The notes below the pieces were generated by a model. That model had not been told where the DNA came from. It did no database searches and saw nothing but the letters and a program-made list of their open reading frames with translations. A stretch of 36,917 nt of DNA from a virus (taxonomy: Duplodnaviria; Heunggongvirae; Uroviricota; Caudoviricetes): the IMG/VR virus record IMGVR_UViG_2711768076_000013; one strand, given 5' to 3'. Below, piece by piece: positions 1 through 11,957 of this stretch. Every line of letters begins with the position of its first letter. Position 1 is the first letter of the stretch. Both the position numbers and the translations under genes were made by a program.

Positions 1-1032
1 TCAAAAACTTGCTATTGATGTTGGTAGTGTTGCCAGCGGATTAAACCGTAATGCAGTTTCCAGGTGATCCGGTGCCAGATGTGCGTAACGCATAGTCATT
101 TTTATATCGTGATGCCCGAGAATTTTTTGTAAGGCCAGGATATTTCCACCCGACATCATGAAGTGCGCCGCAAACGTATGGCGCAGAACGTGTGTCAGTT
201 GACCGCGAGGGAGCACGATAGACGTTTTTTCCATCACGGATAAAAATTGAAAATAGCAGTCTGTAAAGAAATTGAACCCATCAAGCGCCATGATCTCTTC
301 GTAAAGCTCTTTACTGATAGGGATGCTTCTGTTTTTCTTCCCCTTCGTTCTTACAAAGGTAATTCGGTATTTGGTCACCTGTGAGCGGGTAAGATTTACG
401 GCTTCACGCCAACGTGCGCCTGTGCTTAAGCATATCTTAACTACCAGTGCCAGAATTGGGTCCTGACGTTTGCAATCAGCCAGCAATTCAACAATCTGCT
501 CATGGGTAAGCCATGCCATCTCTTTTTCTGCGATGGTGAATTTTCGCATGTTCTCCAGTGGGTTTGGATACGACCATTCGCCCAGGCGGGATAGTTCGCT
601 AAAAACACTACTTAGATAGCTTTGCTCCAGGTTAATGGTGACCGGGCTGGCTCCTTTCTTCCATTTCTCGCTGAAGTAGATCTCACCTGTCAGGCGTTTA
701 TCTCGATAGTGGGCAAACATTTTAGAGGTGAGATCGGTTGCAAGGGGATTGCCCAGAGCGTCAACCATCAGCAGCAATTTGTCATAGACATGCTGCCCAG
801 CAGTCAGAGATTTACCATGTAGTTTGAACCATAGTTCAACCACGTCTTTCAGTGTTCGACGATCCACTGATTCACCCAGCCAGGGCTTTGCTTCGGTTTC
901 TTCCATCGTGTGGCGCTCAAAAGCCAGAGCTTCGCCTTTGGTGGCGAATTGTTTACGCACACGACGCCCACTGCGTCCGGCGGGGTAACATTCGCAAAGC
1001 CATTTTCCTGTGGTGAGTTTTCGTACTGCCAT
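1..1032 (-). CDS. int: Tyrosine site-specific integrase (P2/186 family)
   Basis: 343-aa ORF ending at window position 1; C-terminal catalytic region HVLRHTFAAHFMM...GHHDIKMTMRYAHL fits the R..HxxR..Y tyrosine recombinase pattern; sits next to the repressor as in P2/186 phages. Confidence 0.9.
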   Translation of the reverse strand: MAVRKLTTGKWLCECYPAGRSGRRVRKQFATKGEALAFERHTMEETEAKPWLGESVDRRTLKDVVELWFKLHGKSLTAGQHVYDKLLLMVDALGNPLATDLTSKMFAHYRDKRLTGEIYFSEKWKKGASPVTINLEQSYLSSVFSELSRLGEWSYPNPLENMRKFTIAEKEMAWLTHEQIVELLADCKRQDPILALVVKICLSTGARWREAVNLTRSQVTKYRITFVRTKGKKNRSIPISKELYEEIMALDGFNFFTDCYFQFLSVMEKTSIVLPRGQLTHVLRHTFAAHFMMSGGNILALQKILGHHDIKMTMRYAHLAPDHLETALRFNPLATLPTSIASF

Positions 1033-1110
1033 AAAAAATGCCCTCCAGTGGAGAGCATTTTTACTGTATGTATAACCAGTGTCAATGTATGATGCTTGAG
1101 GTTACATACA

Positions 1111-1482
1111 TCATAAGTACCGATATGATTGCGGGGCCGTTATGTTATCACCTAATGAACTTAGATGAAGCGGTTGATCATAGATTTTTAGATTGCCAAT
1201 TTCTATAGCAAAGGCTTTTTCTTTGCTATGAAAATATGAGTCAAAAAATTGTTTGCTGATACCTGCGTATTGGCTTGTTTTTTCCCATACAATACTTGGC
1301 TTGTCTTCTATAACATCTGCAATGTCAAATTCAGCAACAACTTTACCGACAGGCATTGTTGAATAAATAACCACAGATTTTACATCCGGTTTTTTGAAAA
1401 TTCCTTTTCGGAATTCAAATTTCTTTGTTCCATTAAGGATTTTTTCTACATGCTCTGGGTTAATTGACAATAATACTTTCAT
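1111..1482 (-). CDS. ASCH-domain (PUA-like) protein, last gene of cargo cassette
   Basis: Start taken at MKVLLSINPEHVEKILNGTKKFEFRK (the ORF track extends to 1494); this N-terminus resembles the ASCH fold of E. coli YqfB as recalled. AT-rich. Overlaps the stop of the upstream gene, so likely translationally coupled. Confidence 0.5.
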   Translation of the reverse strand: MKVLLSINPEHVEKILNGTKKFEFRKGIFKKPDVKSVVIYSTMPVGKVVAEFDIADVIEDKPSIVWEKTSQYAGISKQFFDSYFHSKEKAFAIEIGNLKIYDQPLHLSSLGDNITAPQSYRYL

Positions 1483-2530
1483 TGACGCCACCAAGTTTAA
1501 TAATGCTATTAAACTGTTCGTTTGTTAACTTCATGATCCCCCAGTAAGCTCGCGGGGATAATCCTACTTCAGAAATAAGTTTAGCACGATTTAGTCTTTT
1601 GGGCAAAGCAAGGTTATATGTAAAGCTTATAATATATGGGTATTTTTTTGTTCTATAAAAACTTTTAAGCTCAGATTCTGTAAAAACAGAATATCTAGAA
1701 CAGTAATTTAGAAATTCTTTCTCTGTAACGAAAGAGTTTATATTTCTAACTTTTTCTACTACACATAAAGAAGTAGCAACAGAACGGTAATATGCAGGCC
1801 CTTGATTATCGGATGTTCGGTATATAACGATTATATCGTTTGGCTTCATTAATTCAACATCTGACATGCCACAAATATATACTTTTCTAATGCTATTTGC
1901 ATATGATACATCAGCAACAACGTCTGGTGACTCTGTAATTAATTTTGAGTCAGGGAATAAACGAGTATGAAATACGGGGTATATTGAAAGCAAGAATTTA
2001 TTTTCACTGCCTCTGTTATTAATAAATGGATAATCTGACAGTATATCGCCAGTAAGAGCATTACTATTCATTTCTTTTATTAGTACTCGCTCTACACCAT
2101 TTTGAGATTCTTTTACTCCAATATCTATAAAGCCATAGATTTTGAATAGTCTAATTAAGTAGTCATGTTTTTCAAAAACAGTCACATATATATTGTTAGC
2201 ATTATTATCTAGAGCGTGATCGAATATTTTTTTTAAAAATCGTTGACCACGAAGAGTTCCTTTTGGATTAAATTTAAATGTTCCAACTTTTAGATGAATA
2301 CCATCAGGAATATTTGGTTTTGTATCTTCAATGATACCCACTTCTGTTTTTAGATACAAAAAACCATCAATTTTATTTTGTTCATCATAAAGGACATATG
2401 CATAATCATTTGATTTACATTTAGAATGGAACCAATCAATAAACCCATGAGCATAATCGGATTTTAAAGAGTCAAAAAAAACATCAGAAAAATCTACTTG
2501 ATTAAAAGGTATGTATTTTAAGTTTTCCAT
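1460..2530 (-). CDS. GNAT-like acetyltransferase-fold protein with extra C-terminal domain (cargo)
   Basis: 356-aa ORF. The segment NIYVTVFEKHDYLIRLFKIYGFIDIG resembles GNAT motif B and GTLRGQRFLKKIF lies where motif A would be. Very AT-rich. Start codon 2 nt from the stop of the upstream gene. Confidence 0.45.
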   Translation of the reverse strand: MENLKYIPFNQVDFSDVFFDSLKSDYAHGFIDWFHSKCKSNDYAYVLYDEQNKIDGFLYLKTEVGIIEDTKPNIPDGIHLKVGTFKFNPKGTLRGQRFLKKIFDHALDNNANNIYVTVFEKHDYLIRLFKIYGFIDIGVKESQNGVERVLIKEMNSNALTGDILSDYPFINNRGSENKFLLSIYPVFHTRLFPDSKLITESPDVVADVSYANSIRKVYICGMSDVELMKPNDIIVIYRTSDNQGPAYYRSVATSLCVVEKVRNINSFVTEKEFLNYCSRYSVFTESELKSFYRTKKYPYIISFTYNLALPKRLNRAKLISEVGLSPRAYWGIMKLTNEQFNSIIKLGGVNESIIVN

Positions 2531-2532
2531 GT

Positions 2533-3315
2533 TTACAATCCTATTTTAAAATCACATGATAAGCAAATTGATTTAGTTTTAGATATGACGGCGAGTGTTT
2601 TCCCCGGAGTTTGACAATTAGTACAAACATTCCAATTTTTCGGTTTTCCATCAATCTTATATATGTTGGCTAAAATATCATCTAAAGGAAAAAATGTTTT
2701 CATCATGTCTATAATGCTTGCTGCATAGTTTTTCTTTGCCTCGACTAATTTTTGTTCAGGCATGTTTTTATCATTTATCAAGCAATGAACCAGGTTATTA
2801 AGAGGCTCTTGATATATCTCCTCTCGAAAAATTAGAAATGCACTTAAAAAGTCTTTACGTATTTCTTTATTATTACTTTTACCTAAGTGAATTACTTTAT
2901 TTCTTTCTTTGCGCAAAATATCATAAATTTCATTAAAGCGCGGTGAAAGATTTCGCCCACTGATACTTTGTGCTATTCTATGTAGCTCGGTTGCGTCTAA
3001 TGTTGAACATTCGAAAAATGATTTGTTTTTATAGCAGTCTTTTACTTCTTTTAAAAGTAAATAAACACTATGCTCAGCAATTATAGACTTTAGATATATT
3101 TCAGCAGAATTAAAGAGTATTACCAAGCCAGATTGAAAGAAACTCTCTTTTTCGGATATTAAGCGTTTCAGTCGTTGTTCTTCTGTTTCAGGTTGAGCTG
3201 GGGCTTGCAATAACTCAATGTCAGAATAAAAATGTAAGTAGAATGTTTTAATGAAAAACTCAAGGTTCCTTTTGGCATAAAGAAGCATCTCTTCATTGTT
3301 AGGAAGGTCTGTCAT
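2533..3315 (-). CDS. Hypothetical protein with HEPN-like R-N-x3-H motif and C-terminal CxxC..CxxC zinc ribbon (cargo)
   Basis: 260-aa ORF. Contains ERNKVIH (Rx4H with N after R, as in HEPN RNases) and a C-terminal CTNCQ...CLSCD. AT-rich. Its ATG directly abuts the cI stop (TAAATG on the coding strand). Confidence 0.4.
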   Translation of the reverse strand: MTDLPNNEEMLLYAKRNLEFFIKTFYLHFYSDIELLQAPAQPETEEQRLKRLISEKESFFQSGLVILFNSAEIYLKSIIAEHSVYLLLKEVKDCYKNKSFFECSTLDATELHRIAQSISGRNLSPRFNEIYDILRKERNKVIHLGKSNNKEIRKDFLSAFLIFREEIYQEPLNNLVHCLINDKNMPEQKLVEAKKNYAASIIDMMKTFFPLDDILANIYKIDGKPKNWNVCTNCQTPGKTLAVISKTKSICLSCDFKIGL

Positions 3316-4272
3316 TTAAATATCCTTATATATACCAAAACATTTTGCTATTACATTAATATCCGCTAATAGACATTCAAAAGTTGTACTTTCATTAGAT
3401 ACTTTTACTTTTGCAATTGGAATTCTGGTTAGATCTCTAACACTAAATTTTCCTTCGATTTCAACTAACCATTTTCCATCGGTTACTTCATCAAATGCTT
3501 TGTCTGCAAGATATACATTTCCTTCATCTACTATAGATATGGGGTTTTTCACCTTGCTGGGTAACATGGTTTTATCAAAAGGGAGATAATTTGTATCAAA
3601 CAACATACCATTTATAACTTTTTTCCGTGTGATAGCAATAATATCGCTCTTAGCGTCTTCAAAGACAGGACCATTACCGGTTGTTAGCCACATTAATGAA
3701 GCTCCGGTTTCAAGTGCGCACTGGATGATCCAATCAGCTGGAAAGGTATCTCTCATGTAACGATTGGCTAATGTGCTTTTTGAAACACCAATGTGATCCG
3801 CTAGAGCTTGCCTTGTCTTAAATCCATAGGCGATAACTATTCGCTCGATTGCCGCTTTTCCTCCTTGATTAACCTCAATGAGGCTCTCGTTCTTTCGGTG
3901 AGTATTGTTCTCATTTGGGGATTTTGTGTCTAAAGTGAGAGAATGAATCTCCTTACCATCTTTATGGTGGTTCTGTTCTGTATTATGTGTGACAGCCTCT
4001 ACTGTGTTATCGGTACCAAATGCCAACCATTCAACCGACACGCCAGTTTCCATGCTGCAGATTATGACCCAGTCGGCAGGGAAGGTATCACGAGCATATC
4101 TGTTCGCCATTGTGCTTTGGGATATCCCTAAGTGGTTACAGAATGCTTGACGTGAAGTGAAGCCATAAGCTTTCAAAATTCGGTCAATGACCTGTTGCCC
4201 TCCACGATTCTGCATGATTACAGTTTTCATTGCATCATCAACATGGCGAAATGTGATTTTGTGTGTTGACAT
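3316..4272 (-). CDS. cI: CI-type immunity repressor with two tandem N-terminal HTH domains
   Basis: 318 aa. Two diverged copies of a phage CI-repressor HTH (ILKAYGFTSRQAFCNHLGISQSTMANRYARDTFPADW and IVIAYGFKTRQALADHIGVSKSTLANRYMRDTFPADW), then a C-terminal domain resembling phage 186 CI as recalled. Divergent from the apl-like gene. Confidence 0.8.
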   Translation of the reverse strand: MSTHKITFRHVDDAMKTVIMQNRGGQQVIDRILKAYGFTSRQAFCNHLGISQSTMANRYARDTFPADWVIICSMETGVSVEWLAFGTDNTVEAVTHNTEQNHHKDGKEIHSLTLDTKSPNENNTHRKNESLIEVNQGGKAAIERIVIAYGFKTRQALADHIGVSKSTLANRYMRDTFPADWIIQCALETGASLMWLTTGNGPVFEDAKSDIIAITRKKVINGMLFDTNYLPFDKTMLPSKVKNPISIVDEGNVYLADKAFDEVTDGKWLVEIEGKFSVRDLTRIPIAKVKVSNESTTFECLLADINVIAKCFGIYKDI

Positions 4273-7019: not shown

Positions 7020-9430
7020 GCCATGCTGATATGAACAACTGCAGCGGCTTTAACGAGGCCGCCGCAGCATTCTCATGGAACAGCCCGAAAAAGGCTATTA
7101 ACCCTTATCTGGACCCGGCGGAAGTTGCGCCGGTTTCTGCGCTTTCAAACCTGATCACTCTGTACGCTGTCGATAACGAGCAGGAACAACTGCGTCGCGA
7201 GGCACTGAGTGATCAGGTCTGGGAGCGTTATTTCTTTAATGAATCCCGTGATCCTGTCCACCGCGAAATGGAGCAGGATAAGCTCATTAGCCGGGCAAAG
7301 CTGGCGCATGAGCAGCAGCGTTTTAATCCAGATATGGTCATTCTGGCGGACGTCAATGCCCAGCCTTCCCATATCAGCAAGCCGCTGATGCAACGTATTG
7401 AATACTTCAGCAGCCTGGGCAGGCCAAAGGCTTATTCCCGCTATTTGCGTGAGACGATTAAGCCATGTCTGGAACGACTGGAGCATGTACGCGACTGTCA
7501 GCTATCCACTTCTTTTCGCTTTATGGCAAGCCATGAAGGGCTGGACGGCCTGCTGATCCTGCCTGAAATGAGTCAGGATCAGGTGAAGCGCCTGTCTACC
7601 CTTGTCGCCGCGCATATGAGCATGTGCCTTGATGCAGCTTGTGGTGATTTGTATGCCACCGATGACGTTAAGCCAGAAGAAATCCGCAAGACATGGGAAA
7701 AGGTGGCAGCGGAAACCCTGCGTCTGGATGTTATCCCGCCTGCGTTTGAGCAACTCCGTCGGAAAAGAAACCGCCGTAAACCCGTGCCTTATGAACTCAT
7801 TCCGGGTTCGCTGGCTCGTATGTTATGCGCCGACTGGTGGTATCGGAAATTATGGAAGATGCGTTGCGAATGGCGGGAAGAGCAGTTGCGTGCTGTTTGC
7901 CTGGTCAGCAAAAAAGCATCTCCCTATGTCAGCTATGAAGCCGTGATGCATAAACGTGAGCAGCGCCGTAAGTCGCTGGAGTTTTTCCGTTCTCATGAAC
8001 TGGTGAACGAAGACGGCGACACGCTGGATATGGAAGACGTGGTAAACGCCAGCAGCAGCAACCCTGCGCATCGCCGCAATGAGATGATGGCCTGTGTTAA
8101 AGGTCTGGAGCTTATCGCGGAAATGCGCGGTGACTGCGCCGTTTTCTACACCATCACCTGTCCGTCACGTTTCCATTCCACGCTAAATAACGGCAGGCCC
8201 AACCCGACCTGGACAAATGCGACGGTAAGACAAAGCAGTGATTATCTGGTCGGTATGTTTGCTGCATTTCGTAAGGCGATGCACAAAGCCGGATTGCGCT
8301 GGTATGGCGTGCGGGTGGCTGAGCCGCATCATGACGGTACAGTTCACTGGCACCTGTTGTGTTTTATGCGCAAAAAAGATCGCCGCGCCATTACTGCTTT
8401 GTTGCGTAAGTTTGCCATTCGTGAAGACCGCGAGGAGCTGGGTAATAACACGGGACCACGCTTTAAGTCTGAGCTGATAAACCCGCGCAAAGGTACGCCA
8501 ACAAGCTACATCGCGAAATACATCAGTAAGAACATTGACGGGCGTGGTCTGGCTGGCGAGATCAGCAAGGAAACGGGTAAATCCCTGCGTGATAACGCTG
8601 AATACGTTAATGCCTGGGCGTCTCTGCATCGTGTTCAGCAATTCCGCTTCTTTGGCATTCCGGGGCGTCAGGCTTACCGTGAACTGCGATTGCTGGCTGG
8701 TCAGGCGGCAAGGCAACAGGGGGACAAAAAAGCAGGTGCGCCGGTACTGGATAACCCGCGTCTTGATGCCATCCTGGCCGCTGCTGATGCTGGTTGTTTT
8801 GCCACCTACATCATGAAGCAGGGCGGCGTACTGGTTCCCCGCAAATATCACCTCATCAGAACCGCTTATGAAATCAACGAAGAGCCGACCGCCTATGGCG
8901 ATCACGGCATTCGTATTTATGGCATCTGGTCACCCATTGCAGAGGGCAAGATCTGCACTCATGCGGTGAAGTGGAAAATGGTTCGTAAGGCCGTTGACAT
9001 TCAGGAGGCGGCAGCCGACCAGGGCGCTTGCGCCCCTTGGACTCGTGGCAATAACTGTCCCCTTGCTGAAAATTTGAACCAACAGGAGAAAGATAAATCA
9101 GCTGATGGGGACCCCAGAACGGACATTACCAGCATGGATGACAAGGAGTTGAACGATTACCTGCACAGTATGAGCAAAAAAGAGCGCCGGGAACTGGCAG
9201 CAAGGTTACGCCTGGTGAAACCGAAACGGCGTAAAGACTACAAACAGCGAATTACAGACCATCAGCGACTGCAGCTCGTGTATGAGCTGAAGTCCAGAGG
9301 ATTTGATGGCAGCGAGAAAGAGGTCGATTTACTCCTTCGCGGAGGCAGTATTCCGTCAGGAGCAGGCCTGCGTATCTTCTATCGGAACCAGCGTTTGCAG
9401 GAAGATGATCAGTGGCGGAACCTGTATTAA
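7016..9430 (+). CDS. A: Replication initiation endonuclease gpA (rolling-circle, HUH family)
   Basis: 804 aa; HUH motif in [11 protein letters not shown] and a tyrosine pair in YIAKYISK; size and position match P2/186 gene A. Confidence 0.9.
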
Positions 9431-9522
9431 TTACGCGGGTTAACAATTCGTGCTCTTAATAATACCAGGCATATCAGGCTGATGAACGTAAAAAATCGTT
9501 TTACATCAGTAAGATTATTATA

Positions 9523-9542
9523 TACTGTAAATATAAACAGTG
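9523..9542 (+). promoter_or_regulatory. LexA operator (SOS box)
   Basis: TACTGTAAATATAAACAGTG is a perfect CTGT-N8-ACAG with AT-rich spacer, about 40 bp upstream of the small ORF at 9584. Confidence 0.75.
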
Positions 9543-9583
9543 GTTATGCATACAGCATTGCGTGTGGTGTCATAGGAGGAAAG

Positions 9584-9772
9584 ATGCAGGACTATTTTTT
9601 GGAGTCTTTGAAGCTCCAGCGCATTGATTTTTTTCTTAAGCTTGTAGCGGCTAGTGAGTGTAGTGATGAAGAGAAGGGGCTGGCTCTGCAGTGGGTTTCT
9701 GAATTGACTGATGAACTCATGGCAAAAATCAGAACCCACGAATACAACCGCTCAATGGATGTCATCAGCTGA
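9584..9772 (+). CDS. Small SOS-regulated protein (possible Tum-like antirepressor module component)
   Basis: 62-aa ORF with GGAGG before ATG 9584, directly downstream of the SOS box and upstream of the DinI-like gene. Confidence 0.4.
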   Translation: MQDYFLESLKLQRIDFFLKLVAASECSDEEKGLALQWVSELTDELMAKIRTHEYNRSMDVIS

Positions 9773-9782
9773 GGTGACTTTT

Positions 9783-10016
9783 ATGCGCATTGAAATAATG
9801 ATCGATAAAGAGCAGAAGATTAGCCAGTCTACCCTGGACGCCCTTGAATCCGAGCTTTACCGCAATCTGCGCCCCCTGTATCCCAAAACGGTAATTCGCA
9901 TTCGCAAAGGTAGCTCTAACGGTGTGGAACTAACCGGACTGCAACTGGACGAAGAAAGAAAACAAGTGATGAAAATTATGCAGAAGGTGTGGGAAGACGA
10001 CAGCTGGCTGCATTAA
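9783..10016 (+). CDS. DinI-like protein
   Basis: MRIEIMIDKEQKISQSTLDALESELYRNLRPLYPKTVIRIRKGSSNGVELTGL...WEDDSWL resembles E. coli DinI as recalled (MRIEV..., C-terminal W-E-x-x-D-W). Confidence 0.75.
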   Translation: MRIEIMIDKEQKISQSTLDALESELYRNLRPLYPKTVIRIRKGSSNGVELTGLQLDEERKQVMKIMQKVWEDDSWLH

Positions 10017-10150
10017 GAAACGTTGCTGGCGTCTGAACTTGCTTCTGGCGTCAGCAAGGTTGAACAACGAGCCCTTGCGAGGCGTTAGCTCTGTAGTGCA
10101 TGTCTATGCCGCATGAGATCGCATGATCGTTTGAGGATCGTTTTTGCTAA

Positions 10151-10176: not shown

Positions 10177-10220
10177 CGTAGATCATGCAGGTGCATGAAA
10201 ACCACTACATAAAGCGGGCA

Positions 10221-10239
10221 GGCGTGGCGGGGATACGAG
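10221..10239. other. Candidate cos cohesive-end sequence
   Basis: GGCGTGGCGGGGATACGAG; the first 13 nt match the 186/P2 cohesive-end sequence as recalled (GGCGTGGCGGGGAAAGCAT). Location between the replication region and the packaging genes is as expected. Confidence 0.4.
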
Positions 10240-10270
10240 CGCGCGCTCATTACTTTTATAATTCTAGGGT

Positions 10271-10276
10271 TATAAT
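10271..10276 (+). promoter_or_regulatory. Putative -10 element for the KAP NTPase gene
   Basis: Perfect TATAAT 29 nt upstream of ATG 10305, followed by AGGAG at 10293..10297. Confidence 0.35.
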
Positions 10277-10304
10277 ACGGGGCTGTCTTTCTAGGAGAAA
10301 ACAC

Positions 10305-11957
10305 ATGTCCTTAGAGTTTATCAAAGAACAGTTGTCAGATTTTATCTCATCTACAGAACCAGAAGTAATGGCTATACAGGGTGAATGGGGAATTGGTAAA
10401 ACCTATACTTGGAATACGTTCCTAAAAGATAATAAAGATAAGGTTGCATTTAATAGATATAGTTATGTCTCTCTTTTTGGTATAAATTCACTAGATTCTT
10501 TAAAGTATTCTATTTTTGAGAATGCAATTACAAAGGAATATATTGGAAATAAACCTGATTTGGAGACAGCAACAACAAACGCAAGTGGACTTTTTGAATC
10601 ATTTTCTCGAAAAGCAGCAGGTTTGTTAAAAGAAGTTCCTGTTGTAAAAAACTTCTCTACGACACTTGAAGCAATGTCATTTCTGACCGTTTCTAAAATG
10701 ATTGTAGTAATAGATGACTTAGAAAGGCGTGGCAAAAATTTAGATGTTAAAGATGTTTTAGGGCTAGTATCTCTATTAAAAGAGCAGAAGGATTGTAAGG
10801 TGGTTCTATTGCTTAACAATGGCACAGCTAGTATGGAGGATTATTCTACTTATAAAGAAAAGGTCATTGATAGAGATATCACTTACAATCCAACACCAGA
10901 AGAATGCGCAGATATAGCCTATAAAGGTGATTCTCATGTTTATAACTTGTTAAGTAAATATTCCATTTCTTTAGGTATCAAGAATATTCGAATCTTAAAA
11001 AAGATAGAACGTTTTTTCGTGTCCTTAATACCAAATATTATAGGTGATGTTGAGACAATTTCAAATGAAGTTGCGCATTCATTAACTCTGTATTGTTGGA
11101 GCCATTACGGATTTTCTCCAGAGGGAGATGTGCCATCACTAGAATATATTAGGGGAGTGAGGAATATATATACTTATAATGACAAGGAAGAAGGCCATGA
11201 GAAAATCTGGCTTAATACCTTGCTTAAATATGGATATAGAAAAACGAATGATCTTGATGAGGTTCTTATTGATATGGTTAGATATGGCTATCTTGATAAG
11301 AGCAGTTTCCAAAGACAAATAAGCCTAAGGAATGAGGAGATTACGCGTGATAATAAACGAGGTTCCTTATCTGAGGCATGGCAGTTCTTTCATAATTCAT
11401 TTGATGACAATCAAAATCAGGTTGTTGACAAGCTATATCAAGCGGTGGTTGATGGGATGAAGTATGTGACTCCAAGTGATTTAGATAATGTTGTCGGACT
11501 ATATAGGGATTTCGGAGAGAATGCTAAGGCGAGTGAATTGATTGAACAGTTTATTAATTATGGTAACGATGCTCTAAAGGAATATGTTCAATCTATTTAT
11601 GTGAATGTTCATCCCGTAAGAGATACTGAGTTGTTGTCAAAAATTCAAGCCTATTCTAAGATTATAAATATTGATGGTTCAATATATGATGTTCTTAAGA
11701 AATTATCAGGTCAGAATGGTTGGTCTGATAGACATGAGGAAATATTGGATGCTGCTTCAGTAGATGACTACTATCAATTATTTAAAAATGTCATTCTTGA
11801 TGGTGGTGATTCAATAATAGCTACGGCGCTTAAATTCGGAAATTTTAGTAATGGTTCTGATAGAATGAATCGTATAGGGAAAAAGGCAAGGGATGCCTTG
11901 ATAAGAATTGGAGATGAATCGGCGATTAATAAAATGCGTGTAAGGCGATTTTTGTGA
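10305..11957 (+). CDS. KAP-family P-loop NTPase (candidate anti-phage or abortive-infection protein)
   Basis: Walker A in QGEWGIGKTYTW and Walker B-like MIVVIDDLERRG, the KAP-family signatures. Strongly AT-rich compared with flanking phage genes. Sits at the P2 tin/old hotspot position between gene A and the portal gene. Confidence 0.7.
   Translation: MSLEFIKEQLSDFISSTEPEVMAIQGEWGIGKTYTWNTFLKDNKDKVAFNRYSYVSLFGINSLDSLKYSIFENAITKEYIGNKPDLETATTNASGLFESFSRKAAGLLKEVPVVKNFSTTLEAMSFLTVSKMIVVIDDLERRGKNLDVKDVLGLVSLLKEQKDCKVVLLLNNGTASMEDYSTYKEKVIDRDITYNPTPEECADIAYKGDSHVYNLLSKYSISLGIKNIRILKKIERFFVSLIPNIIGDVETISNEVAHSLTLYCWSHYGFSPEGDVPSLEYIRGVRNIYTYNDKEEGHEKIWLNTLLKYGYRKTNDLDEVLIDMVRYGYLDKSSFQRQISLRNEEITRDNKRGSLSEAWQFFHNSFDDNQNQVVDKLYQAVVDGMKYVTPSDLDNVVGLYRDFGENAKASELIEQFINYGNDALKEYVQSIYVNVHPVRDTELLSKIQAYSKIINIDGSIYDVLKKLSGQNGWSDRHEEILDAASVDDYYQLFKNVILDGGDSIIATALKFGNFSNGSDRMNRIGKKARDALIRIGDESAINKMRVRRFL

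Follow-up and report, generated by a model that had tools for sequence, protein, structure and literature searches.

Among the closest described relatives of the genes examined here are the GNAT-EVE proteins and their ASCH partners. The passages of Bell et al. 2020 (PMC7641849) that deal with this family, citing Iyer et al. 2013, describe (PIN-)GNAT-EVE proteins as having an ASCH protein encoded alongside in almost all cases and an AAA_17 ATPase in many, and they predict that GNAT-EVE and ASCH form a toxin–antitoxin pair common in gamma-proteobacterial prophages. As related there, Iyer et al. 2013 proposed the acetylation of a DNA base, and Bell et al. speculate that prophage GNAT-EVE proteins may shield phages from restriction; a HEPN partner is not mentioned in these passages. 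Here we describe a 2.2-kilobase (kb) cassette in which such a pair is preceded by a gene for a putative HEPN ribonuclease (RNase). It lies at positions 1111–3315, between cI and int, in a 186/P2-like Escherichia coli prophage represented by IMG/VR record IMGVR_UViG_2711768076_000013, the whole 36,917 nucleotides (nt) of which are referred to as the window. Its three minus-strand open reading frames (ORFs) are called A, B, and C (Table 1). The cassette is probably a toxin–antitoxin or abortive-infection module expressed in the lysogen. Our preferred reading, which we hold with a little more confidence than doubt, is that it is one horizontally acquired operon of cargo cotranscribed with cI, with B and C as its core and A as an accessory, and that it acts in the manner of abortive infection.

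Genes B and C and their catalogued relatives

B and C are members of a family that is already catalogued, has been described computationally, and carries a toxin–antitoxin label in GenBank. The sequence-only reading had held that none of the three matches a recognized system and that the cassette is the strongest candidate for an undescribed one, a view that profile searches overturned for B and C, which correspond to PADLOC candidate PDC-M11, to the GNAT-EVE and ASCH operon, and to the GevT/GevA pair discussed below. Protein B matches the PDC-M11A profile PDLC04419 over residues 3–356 (2.4e-130), and protein C, encoded directly 3′ of B, matches the PDC-M11B profile PDLC04425 (4.9e-48), so that the M11A match and the adjacent M11B match that identify PDC-M11 are both present. 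The structure model of B (predicted local distance difference test, pLDDT, 88) has two parts, an N-terminal GNAT fold, as in the GNAT-EVE proteins, and a ZmASCH-like fold. This C-terminal domain scores below the Pfam EVE model; ZmASCH is its closest solved structure, and its PUA-like fold also matches the N-terminal domain of McrB, which binds 5-methylcytosine (m5C) DNA.

Protein C is a separate ASCH protein, as in the GNAT-EVE and ASCH operons, with a match to Pfam ASCH (3e-5), a GxKxxExR motif, and a phmmer match to ZmASCH (5e-8). The only NCBIfam model returned for C was an L22/unknown-domain fusion, far under its cutoff and uninformative. The residues of C that are invariant across 57 diverse homologs are G18, K20, E23, and R25, which make up GxKxxExR, together with Y40, T42, Q118, and S119; the latter four align with Tyr47, Thr49, Gln127, and Ser128, the RNA-contacting residues of the ribonuclease ZmASCH. 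The modeled structure suggests that the C-terminal domain of B is itself related to C, their direct BLASTP comparison being marginal (E 0.09). No DNA nuclease domain (HNH, PD-(D/E)XK, and others) was detected in A, B, or C by Pfam, PADLOC, or structure comparison. A TTG at 1494 is the mechanical ORF start of C; it was rejected and the start placed at the ATG because the homologs and the PADLOC profile begin there. This ATG lies 23 nt inside the end of B, with GGTGG just before it.

At 90% identity the family of B forms more than 2,600 clusters, and the B-C family ranges over Proteobacteria, Firmicutes, and Bacteroidota, with distant homologs in temperate-phage and archaeal-virus records. One of the latter, at 8698–9594 of Methanothermobacter phage psiM100 in a segment called inserted fragment IFa, is a distant B homolog (26% identity, 1e-13), and because of it the family is seen to reach archaeal mobile elements. 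Some 50 loci from the three bacterial phyla just named were compared, and C comes after B in nearly all of them; in Enterobacterales and Aeromonas the two genes overlap by 23 nt. The B-C pair is an autonomous conserved core. It stands directly after cI and without A in E. coli E69 and in phage PhiR47_2, and it is also found in the gpA-gpQ slot of SopEPhi, beside Kiwa (KwaB), and in nonmobile chromosomal islets.

Besides the prediction of Bell et al. 2020, two sources point to a toxin–antitoxin relationship. A tblastn search of phage records identified a B homolog (57% identical) in the lambdoid Escherichia phage PhiR47_2 (PV340567.1), which the depositors labeled "GevT toxin"; the next gene, "GevA antitoxin," encodes a protein 61% identical to C. 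In a transposon insertion sequencing (Tn-seq) preprint on Pectobacteriaceae, three adjacent genes of Dickeya dadantii 3937 were scored as essential (cI), as causing a growth defect (GNAT), and as essential (ASCH). The GNAT and ASCH proteins of that strain fall in the same 90% clusters as the B and C homologs, and the presence of an upstream gene there was deduced from consecutive locus tags and accession numbers only. The essentiality of the ASCH ortholog indirectly supports C as an antidote, and from the sequences we infer that B may be toxic and that C may neutralize it.

The HEPN gene upstream of B

Sequence searches gave nothing for A, with noise only from Pfam (Pox_polyA_pol_C, 0.021), no match in NCBIfam, and only weak matches among defense profiles (DUF3644, HEC-08, and Csx1), and fold and motif were therefore needed for its annotation. 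The protein has the α-helical HEPN fold. Its Rx4H motif, R138-N-K-V-I-H143, which fits the Rx4-6H pattern of the superfamily, does not vary among 21 sequences with identities as low as 36%; N69-S-A-E72 and the four cysteines of a C-terminal zinc ribbon are likewise conserved. On this motif and the modeled fold, A is a putative HEPN RNase. No nucleotidyltransferase (MNT) antitoxin lies beside it, its neighbors being cI and the gene for the GNAT-PUA protein, and nowhere does the cassette encode a nucleotidyltransferase. The family is small: it forms 24 clusters among 5.8 billion proteins, all from Enterobacterales plus one from Photobacterium, and has only three representatives at E ≤ 1e-30 among 1.84 billion proteins. 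Searches of 50,697 phage records found neither a homolog of A nor the cassette DNA. As far as we found, neither A nor the three-gene arrangement has been described in the literature.

A was found directly upstream of B-C in every resolved context, inside and outside prophages, and at a distance of 0–2 nt from B in all 10 locus types inspected (Table 1); further A/B pairs were linked through shared contigs. The identities of A and B to the window proteins fall together, from 79/87% down to 35/58%. Three of the 10 locus types lie outside an intact prophage, namely L081, L088, and the remnant L009. The last of these, from Dickeya zeae, was rejected as a nonprophage context when BLASTN revealed the remains of a cI gene with 92.5% identity to the D. 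dadantii prophage; because of these remains it is a decayed prophage, and the true nonprophage contexts are L081 and L088. A second E. coli locus (L079) has the same TAAATG junction between cI and A as the window, although its cI is different (198 amino acids, aa). The Photobacterium locus (L006, Photobacterium swingsii) also contains, at 7889–10129, a convergent operon whose products are a protein of 405 aa, a GNAT protein of 185 aa, and an ASCH protein of 132 aa, a second and split GNAT/ASCH set.

The gene upstream of B-C has been exchanged between lineages. The D. zeae locus (A-B-C) and the D. dadantii locus (membrane protein-B-C) share 94.8% DNA identity from exactly the ATG of B onward, and their cI sequences are 92.5% identical; only the upstream gene differs. 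In the B tree, proteins linked to A and proteins linked to the membrane protein interleave. The membrane protein is an unannotated protein of 355–379 aa with a hydrophobic C terminus, encoded upstream of B-C in Klebsiella, Dickeya, Raoultella, Serratia, and Yersinia prophages; members of its family with 24–27% identity also precede B-C in a nonprophage Aggregatibacter locus, and it matched nothing in Pfam or PADLOC. In other lineages the upstream gene encodes an AAA_17 kinase (Pseudoalteromonas and two Firmicutes) or a TIR/deoxyribosyltransferase-like protein (Aeromonas). We read these sequences as a conserved B-C core with a swappable upstream module that resembles typical suicide effectors, and the upstream RNase or effector position appears to parallel the PIN RNase that is fused to B in still other lineages.

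The cI-int interval and its cargo

The sequence-only reading had described an AT-rich insert of three co-directional, coupled genes between the repressor and the integrase gene, and this was borne out. The guanine–cytosine (GC) content of the cassette is 0.314, compared with 0.516 in the remainder of the window, in which windowed analysis found no other 2.2-kb stretch that is lower. Codon usage agrees, with GC at third codon positions (GC3) of 0.27 in A, 0.20 in B, and 0.26 in C compared with 0.48 in int. Besides the overlap of C with B, the coupling consists of the TAAATG junction of cI with A and a 2-nt gap between the stop of A and the ATG of B (TAAacATG). All three genes appear to be real, judged by the conserved homologs that each possesses and by a low ratio of nonsynonymous to synonymous substitution rates (dN/dS), which is about 0.03–0.05 against an 82–88% identical cassette, with dS saturated. 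The view that the cassette DNA is horizontally acquired cargo within the lysogenic cI-int operon is supported.

The pL operon of phage 186 contains both cI and int, the stop of the former overlapping the start of the latter, so the 2.2-kb cassette interrupts what is there a continuous lysogenic operon. Between cI and int, a sequence scan of the minus strand found no terminator-like hairpin. Promoter-like matches numbered 20, compared with 15.7 ± 4.6 in shuffled sequence, which is no excess, and we make no claim of an internal promoter. It is reasonable to expect that the cassette is coexpressed with cI in the lysogen, given the operon map of 186, the codons that abut, and the lack of a minus-strand terminator. 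The window cI, called "phage repressor protein CI" in RefSeq, contains two Phage_CI_repr helix-turn-helix (HTH) domains (PF07022, 9.6e-58, in two stretches) and one Phage_CI_C domain (PF16452, 6.7e-31). The cI of 186, of Hafnia and Klebsiella, and of most sister prophages has a single HTH domain and 186–198 aa, compared with 318 aa here; long forms (292 and 313 aa) are also found in two sister prophages with other cargo.

A query running from int through cI was compared with 5426 complete E. coli genomes, of which 1119 matched. In the matching genomes that lack the cassette, homology ends at about window position 1092–1111, and the full cassette is present in only 28, from varied sources, at no less than 99.6% identity. 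Among nine sister prophages sampled at the same chromosomal site, beside rcdA, the cI-int slot was occupied by a 63-aa ORF in five, by PD-Lambda-1/SNIPE in two (PADLOC, 7e-120), by a 314-aa protein in one, and by a pair of 349- and 201-aa proteins in one. The earlier statement that repressor and integrase genes are normally adjacent in such phages thus holds for 186 itself but not for the closest E. coli relatives, which usually have the 63-aa ORF between them; a survey of related prophages for other inserts at this junction, which had been suggested along with it, revealed a variable slot. Reading the cassette as prophage defense cargo is reasonable. The 349- and 201-aa pair (L004, 5623–7279; no PADLOC or Pfam match) and the 314-aa protein (L002, 3125–4069; no PADLOC match and only a subthreshold DUF996 match) are less annotated than the A-B-C cassette. 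In the laboratory-derived isolate E. coli EC0880B_R4 (L087, 1121–2467) an IS4 element in the C-int spacer, at about window position 1033–1110, separates int from the cassette, and in NZ_OX460335, a sibling derivative of that strain, the cassette match is in one uninterrupted piece.

For the P2-like phages of E. coli, Rousset et al. 2022 analyzed the gpA-gpQ hotspot; they mention a cI-int hotspot for the K139-like phages of Vibrio (Vibrionaceae) only, and the cI-int slot of E. coli 186-like prophages appears to lie outside their survey. The window has a second AT-rich island (10185–11957, plus strand, GC 0.35) that encodes one 590-aa KAP-family P-loop nucleoside triphosphatase (PADLOC PDC-S49, 4e-27); with a DinI/Tum-like gene on one side and the portal gene on the other, it sits in the gpA-gpQ defense hotspot already known from P2-like phages.

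Table 1. Features of the cassette and its surroundings in the window, and loci elsewhere with A-B-C, A-B, or the alternative membrane-protein gene
Feature	Location	Strand	Remarks
int, tyrosine integrase, last gene of the operon (context)	1..1032	−	Pfam Int_N 3e-32, Phage_integrase 6.8e-22
C-int spacer, right edge of insert	1033..1110	−	Same-integrase prophages stop matching here
Gene C, stand-alone ASCH protein, 123 aa from ATG	1111..1482	−	PDC-M11B; GevA homolog
Gene B, N-terminal GNAT and C-terminal PUA-like (ASCH/EVE-type) barrel, 356 aa	1460..2530	−	PDC-M11A; GevT homolog
Gene A, HEPN-domain putative RNase with C-terminal four-cysteine zinc ribbon, 260 aa	2533..3315	−	
Junction of cI stop and gene A start, TAAATG	3313..3318	−	Read from sequence
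cI repressor, 318 aa, first gene of the lysogenic operon, not cargo	3316..4272	−	Pfam, RefSeq
A-B-C in E. coli, different cI allele	L079/80		
A-B-C in Hafnia	L008		
A-B-C in Yersinia ruckeri	L090/91		
A-B-C in D. zeae prophage remnant	L009		
A-B-C in Enterobacter nonprophage islet	L081/82		
A-B-C in Morganella-type islet between udp and metE	L088/89		
A-B in Photobacterium, ASCH gene on opposite strand	L006		
Membrane-protein family member upstream of B-C	L010 3909-4976		
Membrane-protein family member upstream of B-C	L015 3893-4969		
Membrane-protein family member upstream of B-C	L017 4895-5974		
Membrane-protein family member upstream of B-C	L042 4987-5991		

Proposed action and comparison with known systems

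In the reading that we prefer, the PUA-like domain of B would recruit RNA, most plausibly tRNA or another modified nucleic acid, and the GNAT domain would acetylate the recruited RNA and so block translation, making B the toxic component. Protein C, a nucleic-acid-binding ASCH protein produced by coupled translation from inside B, would keep B harmless. A, the predicted HEPN RNase with its zinc ribbon, would serve as an accessory or effector in a changeable place just before B; in other lineages this place is taken by the membrane protein, the TIR-like protein, or the AAA_17 kinase, or is replaced by an N-terminal PIN domain fused to B. Infection by another phage might then tip the balance between B and C or activate A, and the outcome would be acetylation and cleavage of RNA and a growth arrest of the abortive-infection type that protects the lysogen population.

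Several points weigh against this reading. Substrate, trigger, and enzymatic activities all enter it as predictions; PADLOC lists PDC-M11 as a predicted candidate only; literature searches found no phage-challenge result for any PDC-M11 member and no publication behind the names GevT and GevA. The "essential" call for the ASCH gene concerns a short AT-rich gene beside the essential cI and could be an artifact, and a growth defect from disruption of the presumed toxin gene is not predicted by a simple toxin–antitoxin model. As to the unity of the cassette, most B-C loci lack any A-type gene, and the remote relatives of A, HEPN proteins of about 300 aa, stand alone and weakly match the single-gene candidates PDC-S64 and HEC-08. 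Closely similar B proteins can have either A or the membrane protein as neighbor, which would be expected too if A were an independent neighbor, and in Photobacterium, the sole exception with respect to C, the ASCH gene accompanying A-B is on the opposite strand, in the convergent operon.

The alternative that survives best is that two independent systems are stacked here, A being a self-contained single-gene HEPN toxin or defense protein and B-C a separate toxin–antitoxin. The solitary B-C pairs, such as those after cI in E. coli E69 and PhiR47_2, the exchange of the upstream gene precisely at the start codon of B, the interleaving in the B tree, and the stand-alone relatives of A all fit it. 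Against it, A was never found without B-C in any resolved context, nonprophage islets included, the gap between A and B is 0–2 nt in all lineages, and the two proteins diverge in step as far as 35%/58% identity; the membrane-protein and AAA_17 families that take the place of A elsewhere also stay with B-C across deep divergence, and PIN RNase domains are physically fused to B homologs elsewhere. We consider stacking unlikely, at about one chance in a handful. A different view of the core itself, for which we would likewise give only a minor chance, is that B-C is an acetylation-based sensing and control unit, with a writer, a built-in reader, and an ASCH eraser or RNase, that licenses interchangeable upstream suicide effectors; if that were true, acetylation of nucleic acid or protein would act as an immune switch of a new type, one whose outputs can be swapped.

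A prophage addiction module, in which a toxin–antitoxin would kill cells, or halt their growth, once the prophage is lost and would have no part in defense against other phages, seems improbable to us. The GenBank annotation and the Tn-seq calls back the toxin–antitoxin aspect of it, the cassette sits within the cI-int operon of an excisable element, and protection against phages is a prediction from sequence. However, the validated defense gene PD-Lambda-1 occupies the same slot, and B-C is also located in the gpA-gpQ defense hotspot of SopEPhi, beside Kiwa (KwaB), and in nonmobile chromosomal islets, settings in which stabilization of a prophage would serve no purpose. That B instead modifies a DNA or RNA base by acetylation for the benefit of the phage, evading restriction or reprogramming the host with C and A as accessory readers or processors, agrees with the proposals of base acetylation (Iyer et al. 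2013) and anti-restriction shielding (Bell et al. 2020, PMC7641849) as they appear in the passages cited above, and with the McrB-like match of the PUA-like fold, but it is very improbable given that the cassette is in the lysogenic and not the lytic operon, that Tn-seq and the GevT/GevA label signal toxicity or essentiality, that the partners are typical suicide effectors (HEPN, membrane protein, and TIR-like domain), and that B-C occurs outside phages.

New here are the partner with a HEPN domain and zinc ribbon, the signs that the upstream module can be swapped, and the cI-int cargo hotspot in E. coli 186-like prophages, a second such site distinct from gpA-gpQ, several of whose occupants have no match in defense databases. 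The B-C family is large, and no mechanism for it is publicly available; the E. coli prophage copy, whose promoter context is defined, offers a practical starting point. The alternation of HEPN RNase, membrane protein, TIR-like protein, and AAA_17 kinase upstream of B-C yields concrete predictions of effectors and controllers.

Among the described systems close to the cassette is PDC-M11, with which it shares full-length profile matches of B and C, adjacent and in the same order. PDC-M11 is, however, a two-gene candidate, to which the cassette adds a conserved HEPN gene upstream, and several PDC-M11A profiles have an N-terminal extension of about 95–160 residues that B lacks and that, by analogy, may be the PIN domain of the PIN-GNAT-EVE forms. 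With the GNAT-EVE and ASCH operons the cassette has in common a GNAT domain that is followed, in one protein, by a PUA-superfamily domain at the C terminus, an ASCH neighbor, residence in gamma-proteobacterial prophages (frequent for those operons), occasional AAA_17 partners in the family, and a toxin–antitoxin nature as a prediction; there the RNase is a fused PIN domain, whereas here it is a separate HEPN gene. The GevT/GevA genes of PhiR47_2 are homologous to B and C, in the same order with a similar overlap and directly downstream of cI, but they belong to a lambdoid phage, where they occupy a rexAB-like position and have no HEPN gene upstream. Unlike the HEPN ribonuclease toxins (HEPN-MNT, Csm6/Csx1, prophage HepS, and RnlA/LsoA), A has no MNT, CARF, or Dmd-type partner, and it differs further in an additional helical region and the C-terminal zinc ribbon and belongs to no Pfam family.

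The GNAT toxins of TacAT, AtaRT, and KacAT are single-domain proteins of about 170 aa with ribbon-helix-helix (RHH)/DUF1778 antitoxins. They resemble B in having a GNAT domain as the toxin, the presumed one in B, for which acetylation of aminoacyl-tRNA is plausible (as also suggested by Bell et al. 2020), but B, at 356 aa, has a second, PUA-like domain and is partnered by an ASCH protein. In PUA-domain type IV restriction enzymes a nuclease domain is fused to or paired with the reader, an arrangement that is not found in the cassette. As AT-rich accessory genes probably expressed from a prophage, A, B, and C resemble the cargo represented by lambda rexAB, P2 old/tin, and PD-Lambda-1, and the place that they occupy, like the cI-int hotspot that Rousset et al. 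2022 mention for Vibrio K139-like phages, is a slot that varies between related prophages.

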